Assembly (NCBI GenBank): GCA_034412795.1
Contig: DAOUMD010000141.1
Coordinates: 1-25,305, forward strand
DNA length: 25,305 bases
Direction: 5' to 3'
Source of the DNA: Anaerolineae bacterium
GTDB lineage: Bacteria > Chloroflexota > Anaerolineae > 4572-78 > NAK82
Shown: positions 13,193-24,570 of the stretch, in pieces
How positions within the stretch are numbered: position 1 is the stretch's first letter
How the letters are laid out: every line of letters starts with the position of its first letter
Notes under the pieces: generated by a model
Told to the model about the DNA's origin: nothing
The model's database searches: none
What the model saw: the letters and a program-made list of their open reading frames with translations, nothing else
Program-made: the position numbers and the translations under genes

Positions 13193-14950
13193 ATGACGGC
13201 CAATACCGTAACCGCTGAGCAGTCTTCTGCATCAAGGGGATTGGGCACTCTCGGGACAGCCTTATTCTTTCTCTTAGTTCTGGTAGGTGTCTTTTTCTTC
13301 TATAGCCACTTCTTCGATTCGGGATATTTCGGAGACGATCTCTGGTGGCACCTGGGCACGATATGGTTATTGGTTGGGGTGGGGATATATGTCCTGTTTT
13401 TGCTGAATCCCGCCAAGCGAAGGTTCTGGTTGTTTGTCTACCTTATCTTCGTGCTTACTATCGCCTTCGGTGCTTTTTTCCAAAGCCAAATCACTGGCGG
13501 AACAGGGGTCACTCGCCTCATCCAGAATAGCCCTCTGCTCACCTCCTTATTCGGGGGATACTTCAAAAGCGTGATCTGGTCACTGGTATTTGGCCTATTG
13601 ATCGCGCTCTCTTTGGTTATTGTGCCCCTGCTCATCATTGCCTTCGCCGCCTCCGAATACGTGCTGGCCCTGCACGAAATCGACGGTGTTCGCCGTCGGG
13701 ACGCCGTGAGTTACGTGATTGCGTTGATACTGGGCATCAACCAGCCCTTCATCGTGGTCGAAGACGGCCAGGCGCTGGTTACCAAGGAGGCTGGCAAGAT
13801 CAACGTCATTGGTGGGCCAGGCAAGTTGATCATCAAGCAGGGCAACGTAGTTGTGTTGGAACGCGGCGGCAAGATCACGCGCGTGCTAAACGCCGGCGTC
13901 CACAAGCTTAAACCGCTGGAGAAGATACGCAATGTCTTCAACTTGGGCCGCCAATCCAACTCCGATGAGATAGAGCACGTTCTGACCAAGGATCGCATAC
14001 CGCTAAAGATCAAGTTGGGTATCGGCGTCCAGATTGAGCCGGCCTCCGAGGCCGACAAACGCCCCGAAAGCCGCATCTCGCCCGATGGGGAAGCGCTGAC
14101 CCCAAGACTGGACGACGGTATGTACGCAGTATACGAGGGCACCATTCGTAAGGCGGCTCAGATGTCCCAGGCTACCTCTTTTGCCAAACGTGAATTCAAG
14201 AAGTGTGACGAAGAGCAGGTATGTCAGGACGTGCAAGAGACCACCTGGAAAAAAGTCGCCGGCGGACTGCCTGAAGGTGATTTGCGCGACCATATTATGA
14301 GCCATCGATTTGACGAGTTATTTGAACTGGTTGACAGCGCACCCGGGGAAAAACCTGAGATTCGGGTCGACAAGCGCAAAATTTATGAGATTGAGCAAGC
14401 CATCCTTGAAAAAATCAAGCCCGGCAAACTAAAGGGACTGGGGGTGCTGGTGCACGGTGTGGATATTGGGAAGATCGAGTTTCCAGAAGAAGCGAAAGAC
14501 CTGTTGTTAAATCGCTGGGGAGCTCCGTGGCAACAGCAAATACAACTTATAGAGGCTAAGGCAAAAGCGAAGGGTGAGTTGCAAGCCAAATTACTGGCCG
14601 CTCAAGGCGACCTGGAGGCAACACGGATGGAAGCACAGGGTGAACGGGAAATCGCGGATCTGAAAGCTCAAGCTATTGTAATCAGTGCCCGCGCCAAAGC
14701 CCAGAAACGGGTTATGGAAGGGCGTAGTCAAGCAGAGGCGCGGGCAGCCTTCTTCCAGTTTATAGTGGAAGCACTTCAAGTGGATGGGCGCCCAATAGAT
14801 CCCCAACTAATGGGAGCCATACTGAAGGAATTAGCTTGCTCCTTTGCCTCAGTTAATGATCTTGAGACTTTCATGAGGGTGCATGGCAGATTGAATCGGC
14901 AAGCAGATTTCTCATTGGGTCAGGACAATGGGACAGTAGCAAGTGATTGA
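13193..14950 (+). CDS. SPFH/band-7 (stomatin/HflK/flotillin-like) membrane protein with a polytopic N-terminal domain (about 5 TM), a large insert in the SPFH core and a coiled-coil tail.
   Basis: VVLERGGKITRVLNAGVHKLKPLEKIRNV...HVLTKDRIPLKIKLGIGVQIEP aligns to the SPFH core (VVLRFGK..L.PGLHF.IPF...V....VLTKDG..V.VD.VVQYRI). C-terminal GVLVHGVDIGKIEFPEEA matches the end of the SPFH domain. Ala/Gln/Lys-rich coiled coil. Paralog of 22984-24570. The ORF-track start at 12872 is an upstream low-complexity extension. Confidence 0.75.
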   Translation: MTANTVTAEQSSASRGLGTLGTALFFLLVLVGVFFFYSHFFDSGYFGDDLWWHLGTIWLLVGVGIYVLFLLNPAKRRFWLFVYLIFVLTIAFGAFFQSQITGGTGVTRLIQNSPLLTSLFGGYFKSVIWSLVFGLLIALSLVIVPLLIIAFAASEYVLALHEIDGVRRRDAVSYVIALILGINQPFIVVEDGQALVTKEAGKINVIGGPGKLIIKQGNVVVLERGGKITRVLNAGVHKLKPLEKIRNVFNLGRQSNSDEIEHVLTKDRIPLKIKLGIGVQIEPASEADKRPESRISPDGEALTPRLDDGMYAVYEGTIRKAAQMSQATSFAKREFKKCDEEQVCQDVQETTWKKVAGGLPEGDLRDHIMSHRFDELFELVDSAPGEKPEIRVDKRKIYEIEQAILEKIKPGKLKGLGVLVHGVDIGKIEFPEEAKDLLLNRWGAPWQQQIQLIEAKAKAKGELQAKLLAAQGDLEATRMEAQGEREIADLKAQAIVISARAKAQKRVMEGRSQAEARAAFFQFIVEALQVDGRPIDPQLMGAILKELACSFASVNDLETFMRVHGRLNRQADFSLGQDNGTVASD

Positions 14951-14985
14951 TCCGCTCGCGCAGCCTCTGTTGAGACAAGGGATTC

Positions 14986-15105
14986 TAAGAACCTGTTTGA
15001 AAATTATTAACCCGTTGTCCCCCTACATATTGGGGGACACTGACCGATACGCCCACATGTAGGTTCAAACCGTTCCAAAACGTGCTAAGAGCCTGTTTGA
15101 AAATT
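14986..15105 (+). promoter_or_regulatory. Two 20-bp direct repeats TAAGARCCTGTTTGAAAATT exactly 100 bp apart, flanking a 7-bp-stem palindrome (GTCCCCC tacatatt GGGGGAC, 15017-15038). This is the upstream region of the S24 gene.
   Basis: Read directly: 14986-15005 and 15086-15105. Confidence 0.35.
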
Positions 15106-15129: not shown

Positions 15130-17346
15130 ATGGCATCCCATAGACAAGCCAGTGATGAGATTATTCAGTTTCTGGAGGATTTTCAAGGTACATCACCAGA
15201 TTTGCCTATTTCAGTGGTCGGTCATTGGCAGGAGGCGATGGCAATATGCAAGAAAACAAAGCCGAATTGGAGCAAAGCTGCAGATTTTTGCAATTGCATT
15301 GCAACGGTTTTGAATGGATTGCGTGGCAGTGGAGGGGATTTGGGGCAACTTGAAAAATCTCAGGGACAGATTTCGATTCTTTTGGGTGCCATAAGTCTGG
15401 GCCAGAAAGACTGGTCTGCGGCAAGTTACTATTTTGAACAAGGAGCCAGACGGCTGAGGCAATGGGGGCACACGTCTCTCGAAAGTCTCGCCTATTTTGG
15501 CCGGGCTTTGACTCATAAGCAGGAAGAAAACTGGCCTGGGGCCTTGGAAGCGGCGCAAAAAGCATTGGATGCAATCCACGGCCTTCCTGTTCCTGATAAG
15601 TCGATGCATACTAAGCATTTGCAAAAGCGGATTGAGGAAGGGATCAGATCCATCGGGGAGGTCTCCGCGAGAGTTATTGCGAAACAACCACCAAGTCGGA
15701 GGCCAACGCCTTCTAGGTCTATGTCTAGCCCTCCCCTTCCAATACCGATAGTAAGCAATATTGCAGCTGGCCTCGGCGTCATTGTCGAAGAAAACATCGA
15801 GAATTATCTCCTCTTAGACGACGATCGCCGTAACGACGTCGACTTTGGGGTAAGAGTGGTTGGGGAAAGTATGAAAGGTGACGGCATCCTGCCGGGGGAC
15901 ATCGCCCTTATCCGCCAACAGCCAATAGTTGAAATGGGAGAGATCGCTGCTGTCGTTGTTACGACGCCTACAGGTTCCGAGGGTGTGCTTAAGCGATACC
16001 ACCTTGCATACGAAGAACGGCCGAGTATGTTTCACTGGTTCCTCAAGTCCAGCAATCCGGCCAGTGAGCACCTAGTTGTCATACCCAGTGGCGCAGATAT
16101 TATTGCAATCAAAGCTATATACGAGAATGCAATTCGATCTGGCCGAATACGCAATCCGATTGAGTATTACGAGGACGCTGAACTAATCATTGCCGGAAAA
16201 TATGTCGGATCAGTAAAGAGTATACCGATATCCAGTGACATCAGTGCCTTTACCGCCGGGCCAGGGCGGATTGGAGATGAAAACACTGAGGGGTTCATAT
16301 CTCTAGATGTGAGTTATCGCACTATGGTTGACTTTGGGGTAAGGGTGATAGGAGACAGTATGAAAGGTGATGGTATCCTGCCTGGGAATATTGCACTTAT
16401 CCGTCAGCAGCCAGTTGTTGGGGAAGGAGAGATTGCCGCCCTTGTGATTACAACATCGACTGGCAGGGAAGGGGTACTTAAAAGGTACTACCCCGAAGAA
16501 AGTGAGGGTTTGCAGCACTGGCTTCTTAAGTCTAGTAACCCCGTGGCCAAGGATTTAGTTGTTATACCGCCTCATACAGATGTAGATCAGATTCGGAATC
16601 TATATGCCAGGGAAATCCAGAGTGACAGGGTCGAGTTTTATGAAGATGCTGAACTAGAAGTCGTTGGCAAATATGTTGAGTGTTTCGAGGAGGAATCTTT
16701 TTCAGTTCCAGTTATCTCCACCATAGATAGGGTAAAGCAACCATCAGTGAAGACGGCTGTTGAGAGTTTAGGCGGTTACGCTGAAGTAGAGATTCTTGCA
16801 GGCAGGATTGCGGAAACTGTTAGTGAGCGTCTAACCGGGGCTACACATCAACTAGCCGAGGCTAATTACAGATATTATGACGAACTCAAAGGTATGATTC
16901 GGAAACTTCCGTTTGCTGGTATTGAAGTGCTCGATAACTTCGAAGGATTTGTAATTGCAGAAATTCCTGATGCTAGAAAGGAAACTGGCCAAGCCCCAAA
17001 CAAGGATCGCTATATTTTGCATGGGGCACAGAAAAAGCACGAGATACATATCTCCATCCAATCGGTTGAGCCTTTGGGAGCTACTGACAGCGTTGTTGAG
17101 ATTATTCGAATAATTGATGGTGAGGACGTGGAATATGTCAACTTTGTAGCCAGGTTGGACTGTAATACACTCGATTTTGAACAAGCTGAGTTTACAATTT
17201 CTGTTCCATCCAGATATGCAAAGCCGTCTATTCCGAAAAAAGTCGTTTCCATTACAGGCGAACGAGGGATACATAATCTATTCATTCATATCTCTCAGAA
17301 GAATACACTTGTCCAAGTCCTCTTCATAGAATTGGAGATTCGCTAG
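15130..17346 (+). CDS. Multidomain protein with a TPR-like helical N-domain, a Pro/Ser linker, two tandem LexA-like S24 peptidase domains and a C-terminal domain of about 230 aa that I cannot assign.
   Basis: Both repeats carry the Ser-Lys dyad context (RVVGESMKGDGILPGD...GVLKRY and RVIGDSMKGDGILPGN...GVLKRYY), closely matching LexA (RVSGMSMKDIGIMDGD...VTVKRL). Each is preceded by a LexA-like cleavage region (NIAA-GLGV and FTA-GPGR) about 33 residues before the Ser. RBS AGGAGTGG before ATG 15130. Confidence 0.8.
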   Translation: MASHRQASDEIIQFLEDFQGTSPDLPISVVGHWQEAMAICKKTKPNWSKAADFCNCIATVLNGLRGSGGDLGQLEKSQGQISILLGAISLGQKDWSAASYYFEQGARRLRQWGHTSLESLAYFGRALTHKQEENWPGALEAAQKALDAIHGLPVPDKSMHTKHLQKRIEEGIRSIGEVSARVIAKQPPSRRPTPSRSMSSPPLPIPIVSNIAAGLGVIVEENIENYLLLDDDRRNDVDFGVRVVGESMKGDGILPGDIALIRQQPIVEMGEIAAVVVTTPTGSEGVLKRYHLAYEERPSMFHWFLKSSNPASEHLVVIPSGADIIAIKAIYENAIRSGRIRNPIEYYEDAELIIAGKYVGSVKSIPISSDISAFTAGPGRIGDENTEGFISLDVSYRTMVDFGVRVIGDSMKGDGILPGNIALIRQQPVVGEGEIAALVITTSTGREGVLKRYYPEESEGLQHWLLKSSNPVAKDLVVIPPHTDVDQIRNLYAREIQSDRVEFYEDAELEVVGKYVECFEEESFSVPVISTIDRVKQPSVKTAVESLGGYAEVEILAGRIAETVSERLTGATHQLAEANYRYYDELKGMIRKLPFAGIEVLDNFEGFVIAEIPDARKETGQAPNKDRYILHGAQKKHEIHISIQSVEPLGATDSVVEIIRIIDGEDVEYVNFVARLDCNTLDFEQAEFTISVPSRYAKPSIPKKVVSITGERGIHNLFIHISQKNTLVQVLFIELEIR

Positions 17347-17349
17347 CCA

Positions 17350-18627
17350 ATGGGACGATCAGGGAAACGTAAGCAGCCCATTCTTACAATTGAAGTGTTT
17401 AGTATGAGTGACCAATCTACCGAAATAGGCTTCAGTGGTTCAGGTGATTTTCAAAGTAGAACATTTCGCATAGAGGATTTTGGTTATAGAAGCCTACCCG
17501 AGCATTTTGAACGTTATAGTTCAGCCTTGGAAAATCTCAAAAGAAAATTCGGCAAAGGTGACAAGCAGGAGCAGCCCAGTGAACTGAAAGAGGCAATCAA
17601 AGAACTCTCCAATGGCACAAGTTACTTATATAATTACTTATTTCGAAGACGTAATGATGTCTATGTGGACATCGTAAATCATCTAAGAAATCATATACCT
17701 ACGTCTGATCCAAGACGGGGCGAGGACGTGAACGTGATTGAGGTAAGGGCAAGTAGTATTAAGCATATTATTCCCATCGAATGTCTAGTGATGCCGGATC
17801 ACTCTTTGGGACTAGAGATCAAGGAGAAAAAAGATGTAGTCAGAGCCACATTAAACGTTCTAGGATTCTCGTTTATTATTAATCGAGTGGTTACACATAT
17901 GGAAAGAGTGAGCCAAAAACGAGAGCTTTGTAACGTTCCGGCGTTACCGCTGAAGCAGTTTTACGACGGGTCTCTCGAAGGGGCAGGATATGAGTGTGAT
18001 TTTTTTAAAGGCAAGAGGTTTGGAAGATATTTTCGCTTGGATGGTCCTTGGCCAGAGAGAGGCTCCGATTTTGAAGCGGAAGATGTGGTTCGATACTTCT
18101 ATAGACCCGATCTTGGGTTTGGTCAGGTTATTCAAGCAGAAGCAATAGGACGTCAATCTGACGAAATCCATCATCTATCTTGCCATTGCTATACGGATGA
18201 AAATGCCTCCTGGAGAAGTTTTTTACGTTTCACAGACAGACTCAAAGTAAGTTTAGAGGAAATGCAAAGTCATTTGCCGCATCTCAAATTCAGGGAATAT
18301 TCAGATAAGGAAATGCCTTTAATATTTCTAAATGCTTGCGGTGGCTCGAAGATATCCCCTGAAGGAATGACCTCTTTCCCCGACTATTTTCTAAACGACA
18401 ACCAAAACTGTGGATTTATTGGTAGTGAGACCAATATTCCGGATCCTTTTGCCGCCGAATTCTCTCAAGAGTTTTATTTAAACTTAATACGAGGATTCAC
18501 AATTGGCGAGGCTTTGTTCTGGGCACGTCATACAATGTTGAATAGGTACAACAACCCTCTAGGAATTCTCTACACGTTTTATGGAGATCCATATCTGAGA
18601 GTCACGAAGAAGGCAGATGACCTCTGA
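17350..18627 (+). CDS. CHAT-domain (caspase-like, clan CD) protease.
   Basis: His region EIHHLSCHCYTD and Cys region PLIFLNACGGSK, followed by a CHAT-like tail ending GDPYLRV. AT-rich codon usage like the upstream gene. Start 17350 versus 17404 is uncertain. Confidence 0.75.
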   Translation: MGRSGKRKQPILTIEVFSMSDQSTEIGFSGSGDFQSRTFRIEDFGYRSLPEHFERYSSALENLKRKFGKGDKQEQPSELKEAIKELSNGTSYLYNYLFRRRNDVYVDIVNHLRNHIPTSDPRRGEDVNVIEVRASSIKHIIPIECLVMPDHSLGLEIKEKKDVVRATLNVLGFSFIINRVVTHMERVSQKRELCNVPALPLKQFYDGSLEGAGYECDFFKGKRFGRYFRLDGPWPERGSDFEAEDVVRYFYRPDLGFGQVIQAEAIGRQSDEIHHLSCHCYTDENASWRSFLRFTDRLKVSLEEMQSHLPHLKFREYSDKEMPLIFLNACGGSKISPEGMTSFPDYFLNDNQNCGFIGSETNIPDPFAAEFSQEFYLNLIRGFTIGEALFWARHTMLNRYNNPLGILYTFYGDPYLRVTKKADDL

Positions 18628-18825
18628 AATCAGTTCATACAATTGAACGCCGAACGAAAAAATTAGAAAGCACATTAGACCAAATGATTAACAATATGGC
18701 CCCTTCACAATTGACAGTAGCGCCAACTAGGCAAGAAAGTCGGAGCACCACTCTCAGATTCGTTGACGTGTAAAGTTGGTAAGAAGACGCCAGCATTAAT
18801 TCAATTGCATAATTGAGGAGGAAGT

Positions 18826-19149
18826 ATGAGCGAGCGTACAATCGTAATAATCGGTCGGGAAGACACAGAGGATCGAGGTATCTTGGGCAATGCGAGTCAA
18901 TGGGTTTTTGAACGAGAGGAAGTCTCGGTAGATCACATAAAATCCCAACTCATTGATTTCCTTTCTAGCATGCAGGAAATCTTGGATGGTCTTCCAGACA
19001 AAATGGCTCGGTATGAACTTGAGTCGATGGATGTAAGCGTAGAGATCAGCACGAAAGGAAACGTAAGCCTTGTGGCGGTTGGTGGGGAGTTAGGCGGTAC
19101 GGGTGGCTTGACATTGCATCTAAAAAAGAAGTCACCAGGCCAGCAATAG
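18826..19149 (+). CDS. Small (107 aa) protein, function not assignable. Likely accessory component or substrate of the protease pair.
   Basis: Strong RBS GAGGAGG 5 nt before ATG. Gly-rich C-terminus (AVGGELGGTGGLTLHLKKK). Same AT-rich block and strand as the protease genes. Confidence 0.55.
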   Translation: MSERTIVIIGREDTEDRGILGNASQWVFEREEVSVDHIKSQLIDFLSSMQEILDGLPDKMARYELESMDVSVEISTKGNVSLVAVGGELGGTGGLTLHLKKKSPGQQ

Positions 19150-19775
19150 AGCATCCTAATCAAGAAACTGATTGATATATTGTTATTATGGCAAGCTGAT
19201 AGATCACAATCACGGAATTACTAAGAGTGGTGATTTGAGCGACAGGGGTATCCTGCAATGGTCCTCCATCACTTCATTTCATACCATACCACTTCGACCA
19301 AATTTCCTAGCGTAGGCAGCGTCCATAGCGCAAACTACCATAGGGCATGTTGTCATCTCGAAGGATCATCCTATGATCAACTAAGACTGCTTACCCTATG
19401 TCTAAGGACATTGGTCACAAGTTAAGCAGATTGGAAATTTGTCAAATTCATGCCCTACACAATAACACAGGCCATCAAGGCTGAGATTTCGCAAAGTTCT
19501 AATCAAGCCAGTTTGTTTCACCTAAGTGTTCGTTGGTACATCTGGCTGTGACCATAGCCAAATTGACCAAGAGCTTGTTGAAAAATCGGCTGGAAATCTA
19601 TAAGTTTCTACCTTGACAAATCGCGAAAACGCTTAACTTGTAGGTTGTGGTCTAAGACAGTAGCTCCTTAGTATCTGTAAAGAAATAACTTGTGAGTTTT
19701 GGTCCTACATAACGCGCAAAGAATCACAACTTATTTTTTTACAAGTACTTAGTTAAGATCGTGCTGAGGTGACCT

Positions 19776-20858
19776 ATGCCAGTCTGTGTATCGTGTCGCG
19801 GAGAATACTGGGCTCCAACCGGAAGTGGGCAGAACACTAGTGAGCAACCACGGGATGCACCTACACCATCCGCATTCGATCAAATTGCGCGGTCTGAAGA
19901 AAGCCAAGCACCCGAGGCACCCGCATCGACACATGCGTCACTCTCCCCATCATCAGGCCTGGCGGAGGCATACGACCTGCGTGACCTGCCGCCCTTCGTT
20001 TGCGCCCGCTGCCGTCAGAGCAACCGGCGCTGGCACGAGTGGGCTACCGCCCGCTTTGGCGCCCATTTTATACGTTTCTTCTTTCAAAGCATTCCCTGGG
20101 GTTTGCTGGCATTAATCTCCTTCTTGTTGCCTCTGGTAGCCATCGCTGCCGCCGACACGATCACGCCTGTCGCCTCGGTGCGCATCGGGATTCCCCTGGC
20201 CCTCTTGCTGATCTTTGTCAACGTCGCGTTGCTGTACGCCATCAAAAACTCATTGTGGCGCTACGATGTCTTGAGCCGGGTCGGGCGTGGCTTCAGGCCG
20301 TCGCTGGTCACGCTGGGCGTCACCTTTTTTATCCTGGCGCTGATCTTCGGCCTGGCTCTGGTCTTCATGATGGAAGCCCGCGCCGACGACCCGGAGGCGG
20401 GGCCGACCCAGGGGCTGCTGCGTGTGCTGACCACCATTATGCTGGCGCTGACCTTCGTCAACGTGACAATCTCCGCTATGTTCTTATCCGCCCACGATTA
20501 CGCCAAATGGCTCGACCGTGAGATGCCGCAACCCATCTACGCCCAAGAAAAACGCTTGTTGAGGCTAATTGAGGACGGCGTGTTAGCAAGCATCAAGCGG
20601 GCGACAGGCAAAGAGGATGAGGGAGTGGCAACCACTATCGTGGATATGGAGCGTTGCAAGGATGGCGGCGCTGACCTGGTGATCGGCGCCGAGGTCGCAT
20701 CGAACGGAGACGGGTCGCTGATGAAGTTGCAGAACTGGCAGGTTAAAGCTGATCGCTGGGGCCGAATAAGGAAGATGAGCCGGGAAGGTCCCCCTCAGTA
20801 CGTGGAGTTGCCCGTTGCCGAAAGCTCTGAAGATGATGAAGGTCAAGGGAATGGATGA
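19776..20858 (+). CDS. Zinc-ribbon (CxxC...CxxC) multi-TM membrane protein with a cytoplasmic C-terminal domain that I cannot assign. Paralog of the next gene.
   Basis: N-terminal CVSCRG...CARCRQ, then 3-4 hydrophobic helices. C-terminal motif WQVKADRWGRIRK shared with the next gene (WRVVSDKWGRVTQ). RBS GAGGTGA. Confidence 0.65.
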   Translation: MPVCVSCRGEYWAPTGSGQNTSEQPRDAPTPSAFDQIARSEESQAPEAPASTHASLSPSSGLAEAYDLRDLPPFVCARCRQSNRRWHEWATARFGAHFIRFFFQSIPWGLLALISFLLPLVAIAAADTITPVASVRIGIPLALLLIFVNVALLYAIKNSLWRYDVLSRVGRGFRPSLVTLGVTFFILALIFGLALVFMMEARADDPEAGPTQGLLRVLTTIMLALTFVNVTISAMFLSAHDYAKWLDREMPQPIYAQEKRLLRLIEDGVLASIKRATGKEDEGVATTIVDMERCKDGGADLVIGAEVASNGDGSLMKLQNWQVKADRWGRIRKMSREGPPQYVELPVAESSEDDEGQGNG

Positions 20859-20920: not shown

Positions 20921-21928
20921 TTGTTTAATGAACGTCCCACACCTTTGCCCTGTATAGCCTGCCACACATCCCTGTCTCCTGCCTCCCTCGACTGCTGCCC
21001 CCGCTGTGGCGCGGATAATCGCGCCTGGTTTACCTGGCTGTCTGCCGATCAAAGGGACCACCTCAAGCGATTTTTCCTGCGTAGCCCCTGGGGCCGGCTG
21101 GCGCTGGTCTCGCTGCTCTTGCCCCTTATTTGGGGTGCTCTTAGTGGGCTGCCGGCCTTTGAGACGGTGGTTCTATTTCTGGCGTTCCTGCTGAGCCTGA
21201 CCGGTCTCGTTTTTCTCTTCGCCAGGCGAGATGTCCTGTCCATCCACGACATGGCGCGCCGCGTTTCCCCCGGTCTTCATCCGGAGTTGCTGTCCCTGGG
21301 TGGTACAGGCTTCCTGGTATTCATTGGGGTCGCCGCGATCCTGGTGATCGCTTGGGGATCCGAAGTGTTGGGGGGTGGGCCATCAGCCTTCAACACGTTA
21401 GGAGGTGGGGCTATCGTCTTAGTCGGGCTGGCTTTCACCACCCAGACGTTGGGAGCCGGTCTATATGCCGTGTGTGCCTATGGTCATTGGCTATGCCGCG
21501 CTTTCCCCAGGCCCGTCTTCCTGGACCAGGCGCGGCTTCTGCAATTGGTCCTGCGCGCGGTGGTGCCCCGCATCCAGGTCAAAACGGGCGACACCTATGA
21601 GGCGGTGGCGGCCCAGGTCGTGGCCCTGTCACGCACTAACCGGGCGGGTCTGGATGTGTTGATTCGGGCCGAGGCCGGGACGGACGAGGGTTGGGAGGGA
21701 CACTACCTCAAGGCGGTTCAGCATTGGCGCGTCGTCTCCGACAAGTGGGGGCGTGTGACACAACTGAAACCCCAGGGGCCCCTGGAGTACCTCCCCGATC
21801 TGGACCGCGTGGCCACACCCTTCGCCCCTGGGGATAATGGGGAGAAGGTCTTGGATGGCAAGATTATACCCCCGGAGAAGGAGATATTCCATTATAGGGA
21901 GGTCAGGGATTATCACTTCCGCAAGTGA
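20921..21928 (+). CDS. Second zinc-ribbon multi-TM membrane protein (tandem paralog).
   Basis: CIACH...CCPRCG zinc ribbon, TM helices, and a C-terminal domain homologous to the previous gene. Probable TTG start preceded by GGATGGAG. Confidence 0.6.
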   Translation: MFNERPTPLPCIACHTSLSPASLDCCPRCGADNRAWFTWLSADQRDHLKRFFLRSPWGRLALVSLLLPLIWGALSGLPAFETVVLFLAFLLSLTGLVFLFARRDVLSIHDMARRVSPGLHPELLSLGGTGFLVFIGVAAILVIAWGSEVLGGGPSAFNTLGGGAIVLVGLAFTTQTLGAGLYAVCAYGHWLCRAFPRPVFLDQARLLQLVLRAVVPRIQVKTGDTYEAVAAQVVALSRTNRAGLDVLIRAEAGTDEGWEGHYLKAVQHWRVVSDKWGRVTQLKPQGPLEYLPDLDRVATPFAPGDNGEKVLDGKIIPPEKEIFHYREVRDYHFRK

Positions 21929-22509: not shown

Positions 22510-22764
22510 ATGCCAGACAGTAGAAGAGGTTCCAATTCGCGGCTAGAAATCTGGTTCAAGGATGAAATTGAGAACACACTAAGTGCAATAGACTTGGCAA
22601 ATGAGGAGTTGTTCGAGATTGTCTGTGTTCCTGAGATGCAGCTCTACCGCCAAGGTTACCAAGCTGCGCTGCGAGCTGTTGCGGAGGCATTTGGAATTCG
22701 GCGTGAGCTGACAGCAAACGGCACTGGACGATCACCGAATATCATAGACGCCAACCCTCGCTGA
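22510..22764 (+). CDS. Hypothetical 85-aa protein in an AT-rich mini-module.
   Basis: GGAGG 4 nt before ATG 22510 (MPDSRRGSNSRLEIWFKDEIEN...). Followed by a strong terminator. No family recognised. Confidence 0.45.
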   Translation: MPDSRRGSNSRLEIWFKDEIENTLSAIDLANEELFEIVCVPEMQLYRQGYQAALRAVAEAFGIRRELTANGTGRSPNIIDANPR

Positions 22765-22983: not shown

Positions 22984-24570
22984 TCAATCAATTGACCATT
23001 TGGACGTATCCGCAGATTGTGCCATGTCACCAGGCAGTAGCGGTCCTTGGATCTGAGTTCCTTGCAGCGTGGCAATAAGAAGCCGCCTGTCCTCAGCTTT
23101 GTTCAGGCACTCGTACAGCGTCTTTATTGTTTCCTTCATCGCATCTTGGTCAAGGAAATGGCGCAGCAGCCTAAGCATTTGCTCGAATTGCTTCGCTCGG
23201 ACCTCAGCTTCTGCCTCGCCACGAGTAACAAGAGCCCCCTTCTCGGCTTCGGCCACGATCTCCTTCACCCTGGCATCCGCATGGGCCTCTAACAGCCTGA
23301 GTGCCCGCTCTTGTACTTGATCCGGTAACTTCACACCCTGGATGTCAACGGCGCGAATTCTTATGCCAAAGTTCTTAGCAGCAGCTTGGGCCCACCGGTC
23401 CAGAATGTATTGTTCTATCTCTTGGATGGTTCGCTGGTCTTCTTTAAACTTTTTCGGTAAGCTACTGTTCTCGTCGAAACCGACCGGGCGTAAAATCTGA
23501 TCAAGGCGATAGGTCGCGATCGTGTCCCGCAGTTGTGACTCCGCCCCGGCCACACTGAGGATCTCCCAGCCGGCGGGTGTCACATTCAGGCCTGCCTTGC
23601 GGACGTTCTCCACCCAGACCGGGTAGTCGCCGCCAATCATAACCTCTTCCTTACCGGCCTTCAAATCATTGATGAGCCGGGTCAGCTTATCCCGTTCTTC
23701 GCCCTCATTCTTGGCTAACTCTTCCTCCAAACGCTTGATAGTATCAGGCAAAGGCTCAATTTGATAGCCCACGCCCACTTTTAAGGTCAACCGCACCCCA
23801 TCGCTGGTCAGGACATCCTCTATTTCTTCGGTTTTCCACAGCGGGTTGAGACGCACAATCTTGTAGACGTACTCGTATAACCTGGTTTTGAACACGCCTG
23901 GGCCCCTAATCTGTGTGATCTTGCCGCCTTTCTCGAGTACCACGGCGTTGCCAGGCCGGACGATCACCCGGCCTGGTCCACCGATCGCGGTTAAGACTCC
24001 CCGTGATCGAGCCCGTGTTTCCCGCCCGTCTTCTATGATCACCCATGGATAGTAAGTTCTGAAGATCAATGAAAATAGCCAGCGCACGGCGTCACGCTGG
24101 GTGATACCTTTGTAATCATGTAGGGCGAGCAGAGGCACTGTAGCTAGCCACATCAGGAAAGCCAGTGGCAAGAGCAAGACAATGACAACCACAACCCCGG
24201 CGAGAAAGCCCAACGCCGCTTGTAAGGCAAGCGCGTTGCGGGTGGTGGCTGCCAACCTGGATTCTCGAGCTGCGGCCGCGATGGCGGGACTGGTAGCGAT
24301 GAAGGTCTGCACCAATGTCGCTACTAACAAGATGACGAAGAGGAGAATCCAGACGAAGGCCAGAAATCGAAAAAGTGGCTTCACAAAGAGTCGGAAAAAT
24401 AGGAGTCCACCCAGGAAGCCCACGGCATAACTCAGCCTCCAGTCGATTTGATATGTGGCGATGGTGAGAAAGATCAATCCAAGCGCAACTAGCGCCATCT
24501 GTACCCCTCCCCCACTTAGCTCGGTCGCTTTCTTGGGTACTTCGCTGGAGATGTCCGTCGTACTGGTCAT
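22984..24570 (-). CDS. SPFH/band-7 membrane protein paralog (polytopic N-domain plus SPFH core with insert plus coiled coil).
   Basis: RGVLTAIGGPGRVIVRPGNAVVLEKGGKITQIRGPGVFKTRLYEYVYKI...DVLTSDGVRLTLKVGVGYQIEP aligns position by position with the 13193-14950 protein. RBS GGAGGAA before ATG. Confidence 0.75.
   Translation of the reverse strand: MTSTTDISSEVPKKATELSGGGVQMALVALGLIFLTIATYQIDWRLSYAVGFLGGLLFFRLFVKPLFRFLAFVWILLFVILLVATLVQTFIATSPAIAAAARESRLAATTRNALALQAALGFLAGVVVVIVLLLPLAFLMWLATVPLLALHDYKGITQRDAVRWLFSLIFRTYYPWVIIEDGRETRARSRGVLTAIGGPGRVIVRPGNAVVLEKGGKITQIRGPGVFKTRLYEYVYKIVRLNPLWKTEEIEDVLTSDGVRLTLKVGVGYQIEPLPDTIKRLEEELAKNEGEERDKLTRLINDLKAGKEEVMIGGDYPVWVENVRKAGLNVTPAGWEILSVAGAESQLRDTIATYRLDQILRPVGFDENSSLPKKFKEDQRTIQEIEQYILDRWAQAAAKNFGIRIRAVDIQGVKLPDQVQERALRLLEAHADARVKEIVAEAEKGALVTRGEAEAEVRAKQFEQMLRLLRHFLDQDAMKETIKTLYECLNKAEDRRLLIATLQGTQIQGPLLPGDMAQSADTSKWSID

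Follow-up and report, generated by a model that had tools for sequence, protein, structure and literature searches.

A CHAT caspase-like protease and its Pepco partner as the probable output of a TPR-S24 sensor cassette in an Anaerolineae bacterium

What is a caspase-like protease doing directly behind a gene for a protein with LexA-type domains, and what is the small protein encoded after it? The question is raised by a 25,305-nucleotide (nt) stretch of DNA from an Anaerolineae bacterium (contig DAOUMD010000141.1, assembly GCA_034412795.1; the whole stretch is hereafter called the window), in which a CHAT protease of 425 amino acids (aa; 17350..18627) and a 107-aa protein of the Pepco family (18826..19149) are encoded, both on the forward strand and both from an ATG, where an earlier note made from the DNA letters had placed them. 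The gene set is identical in two independent assemblies (CAZCVV010000067.1 of GCA_964501865.1, and a Logan assembly). Building on folds, catalytic residues, family memberships, gene-order conservation and effector swapping, all established by computation, we conclude with a probability of roughly 60% that CHAT and Pepco are the output of a cassette controlled by a sensor that carries a domain here called X, and that a cascade running from S24 to CHAT to Pepco would kill or arrest the cell, in the manner of abortive-infection immunity. The observation made in the earlier note was confirmed and its interpretation, which is supported, proved essentially right. CHAT-Pepco pairs are a known kind of protease-effector module; what sets this locus apart is the X adaptor, a clade of tail-less, N-terminally extended Pepcos and, above all, the S24/SPFH/zinc-ribbon (Zn-ribbon) context.

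The CHAT open reading frame (ORF) begins 3 nt past the stop codon of the sensor gene (TAG at 17344-17346, ATG at 17350), in agreement with the "few nt" noticed before. Its product matches the Pfam family CHAT (PF12770; 35.5 bits against a gathering score of 24, E-value 9.4e-9) over residues 269-399 only, which correspond to profile positions 141-269 of 289, and it contains the motifs by which it had been recognized, namely HHLSCHCYTD (274-283), FLNACGG (326-332) and GDPYLRV (413-419). We found 61 CHAT homologues, and in an alignment of 45 of them (24-51% identity) H275, C278, H279, N328 and C330 are invariant. Since H275-x3-H279 fits the usual CHAT H-x3-H motif, its second histidine, H279 (codon 18184-18186), is the likely catalytic one; Cys330 (codon 18337-18339) aligns with the cysteine in the FLNAC/LNAC of solved CHAT proteases. 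An AlphaFold2 (AF2) model built on the homologue alignment forms a single globule (predicted local distance difference test, pLDDT, 90.5; predicted template modelling score, pTM, 0.92), in which strands 273-277 and 322-327 precede H279/H275 and C330, respectively. When this model was compared with the PDB using Foldseek, the top matches were Csx29/TPR-CHAT, the separase protease domain and SAVED-CHAT (E-values 3.5e-11 to 1e-7), with the cysteine segment aligned to the LNAC of 8tl0 (SAVED-CHAT) and the AC of 8rot. The identification as CHAT is thus upheld by both profile and model, and we regard the gene product as a latent cysteine protease of the CHAT (separase/Csx29-like) type with predicted activity.

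The N-terminal 250 residues of this protein had been left unassigned and proposed as a possible sensor. About 290 of the 425 residues superpose on separase or Csx29, so the extra module is limited to residues ~1-115 (three strands, 12-42, and three helices, 49-113, in the AF2 model), while residues ~125-425 are modelled roughly as one enlarged CHAT/separase-type protease unit; "unassigned" therefore holds for the first ~115 residues and not for the rest. The sensor is most likely the upstream S24 protein, not the CHAT N-terminus. Identity to Csx29 (Craspase), SAVED-CHAT and separase is 9-14% (17% to SAVED-CHAT), and unlike these the window protease carries neither a TPR nor a SAVED domain and is encoded away from CRISPR or cyclic-nucleotide genes, having instead its own ~115-residue N-terminal module, an X partner and Pepco as presumed substrate. 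The SAVED-CHAT system is a precedent for a protease cascade headed by a CHAT enzyme. The viral contigs searched contained no CHAT relatives, and the S24 matches there were to generic phage-repressor-like domains.

The 107-aa protein belongs to a family, reportedly named Pepco by Nicastro and colleagues in 2023, whose Pfam profile (PF24393) it matches with 65.9 bits (cut-off 27, E-value 5.6e-18), residues 22-101 covering profile positions 32-112 of 112. It consists, in this order, of a conserved N-terminal extension (IIGREDTEDR17), a predicted amphipathic helix, predicted glycine-rich amphipathic beta strands and a very short C-terminal tail. The helix (residues ~33-56) and the strands, which alternate hydrophobic and polar residues (VSVEIS, NVSLVAV, LTLHLKK), are visible from the sequence in alignments of 7 and of 38 CHAT-linked Pepcos. 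Most of the 38 end 0-3 residues past the last strand (...TFTFTRG, ...TFTFRK), the window protein 5-8 residues past it, and all 38 have the N-terminal extension in common (t-I-x-V-x-G-x-E-D ... D-R). The Shine-Dalgarno sequence GAGGAGG noticed earlier (18815..18821, forward strand; sequence and pattern search) lies 4 nt before the Pepco ATG; the heptamer is not rare in the window (6 copies vs 3.65 expected), but the Pepco copy is the one before a start codon. The description of the small ORF as tightly coupled to CHAT did not hold: 198 nt separate it from the CHAT stop, and no wider spacing occurs in 36 related loci (offsets -27 to +150 nt). This spacer has no significant RNA structure (z = -0.08) and no Rfam match, and neither it nor the cassette gave an RNA-element, promoter or terminator signal stronger than expected by chance.

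What most likely ties the protease to its neighbours is the end of the gene upstream. The sensor (15130..17346, forward strand) has 738 aa when read from an ATG at 15130, with AGGAG 8 nt upstream, and its longest ORF (754 aa) starts from a GTG at 15082; sensor residues are numbered here in the 754-aa ORF. Its last ~150 residues (homology over ~600-754) form X (16879..17343), which follows a long helix (~16777-16905), was modelled as a long helix and then a beta-sandwich (pLDDT 83) and matches no Pfam family. X-like C-termini were found in five further loci (L003, L004, L006, L007 and L008; blastp E-values 1e-6 to 1e-34), each in a gene ending at the CHAT start, and an exhaustive single-sequence search with X (phmmer) returned only 16 clusters, X always being C-terminal. 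We then combined a scan of one genome per species, which gave 80 CHAT loci, with hidden Markov models (HMMs) of our own for X and Pepco, and compared 61 non-redundant loci of the close CHAT subfamily with 24 more distant CHAT loci. An X-domain ORF lies upstream of CHAT in 55 of the 61 close loci and in 2 of the 24 distant ones, and in 54 of the close loci it ends no more than 150 nt from the CHAT start, mostly within 13 nt. Pepco directly follows CHAT in 36/61 close and 3/24 distant loci, so that the small ORF is in fact retained beside CHAT homologues, and X and Pepco are both present in 34/61. Most of these loci come from Streptomyces and other Actinomycetota, and further ones from Acidobacteriota, Planctomycetota and Chloroflexota; one X-CHAT-Pepco cassette (L034) sits on a 571-kb plasmid (Streptomyces sp. 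NBC_01006 plasmid unnamed1), which fits mobility of the cassette.

X is carried by very different proteins, including nSTAND NTPases, receiver-domain, multi-transmembrane, BNR-like and HEAT proteins, or it occurs as a ~230-aa stand-alone form beside STAND genes. Because X ends next to the CHAT start in 54/61 loci, the conserved unit is X-tail, CHAT and Pepco, borne by sensors of many kinds, and its presence on unrelated sensors is the behaviour expected of an adaptor that links interchangeable sensors to one output module. X most likely holds or recruits CHAT, probably through the extra N-terminal module of the protease. Functional coupling of the S24 protein and CHAT is supported as well, less by the 3-nt gap, from which the earlier note took the two to be probably co-translated, than by the sensor ending in a conserved partner domain of the CHAT clade. 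A comparable logic has been described for the effector-associated (EAD/Death-like) domains of NTP-dependent conflict systems, through which exchangeable sensors are joined to exchangeable effectors from adjacent genes (Kaur et al. 2020, PMC7159879). X resembles these in being a small, non-enzymatic domain with a putative linking role, and relatives of the window sensor carry EAD7; EADs, by contrast, act as homotypic pairs and are mostly alpha-helical, whereas X is a beta-sandwich on the sensor side only and without a Pfam model, no second copy of it being seen on CHAT.

The sensor itself is of a rare type, with a TPR-like helical region followed by S24 domain a, S24 domain b, the long helix and X. 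Its match to Peptidase_S24 (78 bits, E-value 5.7e-22) falls in two stretches, which alignment with Escherichia coli LexA (phmmer, MAFFT) resolves into domain a (15724..16230) and its tandem duplicate, domain b (16231..16758), both on the forward strand. The duplication is also visible in the DNA, as a direct repeat (15838-16003 and 16327-16492) of 73% identity at 489-nt spacing. In these alignments IAA/GLG of domain a and FTA/GPG of domain b are in register with VAA/GEP of LexA, that is, with the A84-G85 site, GESMK (a) and GDSMK (b) fall on Ser119 (GMSMK in LexA), and VLKRY falls on Lys156. The residues concerned, with codons verified, are Ala229-Gly230 (15766-15771), Ser263 (15868-15870) and Lys304 (15991-15993) in domain a, and Ala392-Gly393 (16255-16260), Ser426 (16357-16359) and Lys467 (16480-16482) in domain b; the Ala, Gly, Ser and Lys are invariant in 9 close homologues. 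The window sensor thus has in common with LexA, UmuD and lambda CI the Pfam S24 fold family, the Ser/Lys dyad and an Ala-Gly bond in the LexA register, but it differs from them in its TPR region, which takes the place of the DNA-binding domain, in its two S24 domains, in the putative protease-recruiting domain at its C-terminus and in its SPFH/membrane-protein context. LexA aligns to the S24 part only, and the N-terminal ~200 residues give only weak TPR matches with no DNA-binding domain among them; the sensor is therefore not a LexA repressor. The two S24 domains reside on separate genes in three related loci (L090, L092 and L009), so the window sensor looks like a fusion of two neighbouring genes. 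We found only one further S24-X fusion (P0066, in L009), and it is again followed by CHAT and Pepco. In another sensor homologue (P0065, 742 aa) we observed repeated S24 units, including two near-identical C-terminal segments, without X, which indicates that S24 multiplication within one chain recurs in the family. Just upstream of the sensor start, a 21-nt direct repeat, CTAAGA(A/G)CCTGTTTGAAAATT (14985-15005 and 15085-15105, 95% identity, copies 100 nt apart), flanks a guanine-cytosine (GC) hairpin at ~15015-15040. For this repeat, a candidate operator or promoter element, we saw no counterpart in the related S24 loci L090-L110.

How the parts might work together is suggested by a recent study of Pepco-type proteins, which adjoin serine or cysteine proteases (Evans et al., bioRxiv 10.1101/2025.11.14.688446). 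SsPepco of Streptomyces subrutilus, encoded with the trypsin-type SsAvs4, pre-assembles as 9-10-mer beta-barrels; the SsAvs4 protease removes a 20-residue C-terminal tail after Ile97, toxicity requires the catalytic serine of the protease and the precise cut, and the truncated protein kills E. coli, making the Trypco2-type "Pepco" a protease-activated pore toxin (bioRxiv 10.1101/2025.11.14.688446). The published logic is hence that a sensor activates a protease, which makes one cut in a small protein, which forms a membrane pore (bioRxiv 10.1101/2025.11.14.688446). What has been published on these proteins agrees with the guess, made in the earlier note, of a substrate or effector pro-form as the small partner.

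Transferred to the window, this logic gives a cascade of five steps. The SPFH proteins and Zn-ribbon proteins encoded around the cassette (described below) would, with the TPR region, sense or transmit a signal; candidates are a membrane event and, as the LexA analogy suggests, a nucleoprotein filament. The S24 domains, whose relevant residues are intact, would then cleave the sensor chain at one Ala-Gly site or at both, and the X fragment bound to CHAT would be released, rearranged or degraded, leaving CHAT active; in the relatives with STAND-X sensors, sensor oligomerisation would take the place of this step. Active CHAT would cut Pepco, as its gene linkage and the published trypsin/Trypco2 case suggest, and processed Pepco would permeabilise the membrane, as in that case and as its amphipathic sequence pattern would allow. 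The S24 trigger, the binding of X to CHAT, the cutting of Pepco and its site, the part played by the SPFH and Zn-ribbon proteins and an anti-phage function are what we infer here.

The window pair resembles SsPepco and SsAvs4 in having a non-enzymatic protein of ~110 aa beside a defence protease, with a predicted helix followed by glycine-rich amphipathic strands. It is unlike them in that its CHAT cysteine protease is encoded on its own, where SsAvs4 joins a trypsin domain to a STAND sensor in one chain, in that the sensor would be coupled in trans through X, and in that Pepco has no C-terminal tail or conserved Ile cut site and has an N-terminal extension, which SsPepco does not have. The pore-toxin mechanism is transferred to this Pepco because of the grouping in the literature and the similar helix/glycine-rich-strand layout. 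Bacterial gasdermins offer a further parallel, in which a neighbouring protease cuts off an inhibitory peptide and the resulting pore brings about cell death in phage defence. The likeness is a proposed pore-forming partner cut by a protease; the gasdermin pore protein is unrelated and larger (~250-300 aa vs 107 aa for Pepco), and its inhibitory peptide is C-terminal.

Several results weigh against this account. The sole characterised "Pepco", SsPepco, belongs neither to PF24393 nor to a CHAT-linked or S24-coupled system: its sequence, taken from the supplement of the preprint, matches Trypco2 (PF19631), and the window protein has no detectable similarity to it, an hhalign comparison of SsPepco with the CHAT-linked Pepcos giving a probability of 4% and BLASTP no meaningful alignment. 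A cleavable tail of ~20 residues after a conserved Ile is not present in the window Pepco, and since the CHAT-linked Pepcos mostly stop 0-3 residues beyond their last strand, the published activation step, loss of 20 C-terminal residues, is closed to them in that form. The 198-nt gap means that Pepco could be expressed separately from CHAT. Self-cleavage by S24 would follow from conserved residues only, in a sensor that has no DNA-binding domain, and none of seven locus proteins matched PADLOC-DB 2.0.0 (2023) at E-values up to 0.1. Finally, our own HMM detected no Pepco in 25/61 close loci. We retain the pro-toxin model, given that a helix with alternating glycine-rich strands, as read from the sequences, is common to SsPepco and this clade, and suggest that licensing in this clade would involve the N-terminal extension, not by removal of a C-terminal tail, either through a cut after the conserved Arg or with the segment serving as a docking strand.

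The Pepco-less loci make one alternative the most serious rival, since other unannotated genes stand there instead: Pepco may be a regulator of CHAT (inhibitor, chaperone or decoy substrate), with the damage done by CHAT cutting cellular or phage proteins. That the protease can exist alone in the 25 X-CHAT loci speaks for this, as do the CHAT-linked Pepcos that have no cleavable C-terminal tail and the report that a caspase-like protease without an associated effector still defends (bioRxiv 10.1101/2025.11.14.688446). Against it stand the alternating beta strands and preceding amphipathic helix read from the sequence here, as in the pore-forming SsPepco, and the Pepco-less loci have other conserved genes, none with a Pfam family, in the Pepco position, which looks like replacement of an effector and not like loss of a regulator; we therefore hold a regulatory Pepco to be unlikely. 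Two families in that position are candidates for alternative CHAT-controlled effectors, one of ~265-320 aa (L045 9294-10094, L054 9082-9876, L057 8930-9892) and one of ~160-300 aa (L051 9238-9714, L061 9042-9935).

Returning to Pepco as the CHAT-activated toxin, the order of the cuts might still differ from that proposed. CHAT could cut the sensor, for instance just ahead of X or at the junction of the two S24 domains, which would then be a mere dimerisation or regulatory scaffold without self-cleavage, or S24 could cut CHAT or Pepco in trans. The sequence fixes no direction, since all it shows is that genes for the S24 protein, CHAT and Pepco occur together, and LexA-type domains are dimerisation modules, two of them fused here and borne on separate S24 genes elsewhere. 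Both S24 copies nevertheless keep the Ala-Gly site in LexA register, which argues for intramolecular cleavage, and most X-CHAT sensors have no protease domain, so CHAT activation does not generally depend on S24. A reversed or trans order is, in our view, improbable.

Is the cassette at home among its neighbours? It is framed by two pairs of membrane-protein genes. SPFH_A (13193..14950, forward strand; longest ORF from 12872) matches Band_7 with 35.4 bits (E-value 1.4e-8) and has 4-5 N-terminal transmembrane segments by hydropathy; the second SPFH protein, SPFH_B (528 aa, 22984..24570, reverse strand), matches it with 44.5 bits (E-value 2.3e-11; cut-off 23.6 for both) and is 31% identical to SPFH_A (E-value 1e-43). 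Downstream of Pepco lie ZnR_A (360 aa, 19776..20858, forward strand), a Zn-ribbon protein with ~4 transmembrane segments by hydropathy and no Pfam match, and its paralogue ZnR_B (335 aa, 20921..21928, forward strand; 31% identity, E-value 1e-37). With ~31% identity in each pair, the membrane frame may be present in duplicate at this locus, much as L110 has two SPFH-S24 units.

We had considered these genes as unrelated neighbours, a view overturned by finding SPFH genes upstream and Zn-ribbon genes downstream of TPR-S24 homologues. Orthologues of SPFH_A (52-65% identity) lie directly upstream of TPR-S24 genes in L090, L091, L092, L095 and L109, and in L110 two TPR-S24 genes are each preceded by a more distant SPFH gene; SPFH was found in this position in 7 loci in total and Zn-ribbon membrane proteins in 5. 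An orthologue of ZnR_A 87.5% identical to it occupies the syntenic site in L092, with homologues in L090 and L096, and ZnR_B has homologues in L096 and L110, the one in L110 being a more distant Zn-ribbon protein that matches ZnR_B best. In these loci the TPR-S24 gene is often followed by another S24 gene, and TPR-S24 homologues carry N-terminal TIR_2, HNH, Trypsin_2 or EAD7 domains (above Pfam cut-offs) or a sub-threshold TRADD-N-like one. A metagenome scan with a 9-sequence S24 alignment added only 16, mostly short contigs; a 25-sequence alignment was too diverse.

The clearest picture comes from L092 and L109, loci of two close relatives of the window's organism, whose 2-oxoacid dehydrogenase E1 is 98% and 91% identical, respectively. 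In all three the system lies at the same site after the E1/E2 genes, with three different cassettes between SPFH_A and ZnR_A: TPR-S24-S24-X, CHAT and Pepco in the window; Trypsin_2-TPR-S24, a 133-aa gene and S24 in L092; and HNH-(TRADD-N-like)-TPR-S24 in L109. The GC content at third codon positions (GC3) of the window cassette (15130-19775) is 0.38-0.49, whereas the SPFH and Zn-ribbon genes stand at 0.60-0.71 and housekeeping genes at 0.73-0.83; the cassette is compositionally foreign. Different cassettes at one site in close relatives, together with the foreign composition of the window cassette, are what a variable immune hotspot would show, in which SPFH and Zn-ribbon proteins form a constant frame around exchangeable S24-gated effectors.

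The same evidence bears on two other explanations. One is that a foreign cassette was recently juxtaposed by chance with unrelated SPFH and Zn-ribbon genes, the S24-X fusion being a non-functional product of recombination. The sharp GC3 drop across 15130-19775 would be as expected, and none of the ~80 other CHAT loci contains SPFH or Zn-ribbon homologues; yet no ORF is broken and the two assemblies agree exactly on all of them, an independent S24-X/CHAT/Pepco locus exists (L009), and SPFH, TPR-S24 and Zn-ribbon genes recur with other effectors, so that the cassette replaced an equivalent one. This makes chance assembly very improbable. The other is a module for membrane-protein quality control or stress signalling, in which SPFH proteins scaffold proteases and neither immunity nor suicide is involved. 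HflK/C-FtsH and stomatin-NfeD are such SPFH-protease partnerships, established in housekeeping contexts, and they resemble the window, where two SPFH and two Zn-ribbon membrane proteins flank the proteases, in that a protease gene accompanies one for an SPFH membrane scaffold. The window differs in its self-cleaving-type S24 protease, its swap-in toxic effectors and its Zn-ribbon membrane proteins. A housekeeping role also sits poorly with TPR-S24 family members bearing TIR, HNH, trypsin and EAD7 (the last a marker of conflict systems), with cassettes that differ between near-identical genomic backgrounds, with the foreign composition of the window cassette, and with the toxicity of a Pepco-type protein in the one case tested; we consider it quite improbable. 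Band7-like scaffolds occur in the VMAP conflict systems (Kaur et al. 2020, PMC7159879).

An immune cassette ending in CHAT and Pepco thus remains our preferred explanation. Beyond it, we tentatively put forward that the SPFH/TPR-S24/Zn-ribbon loci form a previously undescribed membrane-associated immune family, a possible reading to which we give well under even odds, in which LexA-like self-cutting would be the switch in place of NTP binding or nucleotide signalling, effectors (TIR, HNH, trypsin, EAD7 or X-CHAT-Pepco) would be exchanged like cartridges, and the window would run a three-tier cascade with N-terminal processing of Pepco. Among the papers available to our search, none described the SPFH-S24 combination.

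The pairing of a protease with Pepco is among the most abundant bacterial protease-effector modules, and one example (trypsin/Trypco2) has been studied. The clade described here, with more than 50 loci, has a separate CHAT enzyme, a conserved unannotated adaptor to the sensor and a presumed toxin without the tail cleaved in SsPepco, and it offers testable predictions about a second route of toxin licensing and about how caspase-like proteases are recruited in bacteria. Its S24 version points to a possible link between LexA-type self-cleavage and cell-suicide effectors, within an SPFH-associated system with exchangeable effectors.

Some smaller features of these loci deserve mention. Between Pepco and ZnR_A lies a 626-nt non-coding stretch of low GC content (0.41; 19150-19775), which may be the right-hand junction of the acquired cassette; it holds a 29-nt imperfect inverted repeat (19417-19445 and 19613-19641, 79% complementary, arms 167 nt apart), and no att-like repeats were found flanking the cassette. 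Two small unannotated families absent from the window accompany related S24 genes: one of ~105-118 aa (51-59% identity between loci), convergent right after the S24 gene, on the reverse strand at L009 4671-4985, L091 8941-9297, and L110 4148-4471 and 8180-8509; and one of 133-149 aa (L092 9407-9808 and L110 4756-5205, 46% identity). In the window, an 84-aa ORF without a Pfam match (22510-22764, forward strand) has a weak homologue beside the SPFH gene of L109 (4188-4421, reverse strand; 31% identity, E-value 7e-6) and may be a small accessory gene of the SPFH/S24 system. Just past the right end of the window, the next gene on the contig (L001 18097-19695) encodes a protein with the domains Response_reg, TCAD9 and APH; as TCAD9 marks ternary conflict systems, the neighbourhood may be a broader defence island.

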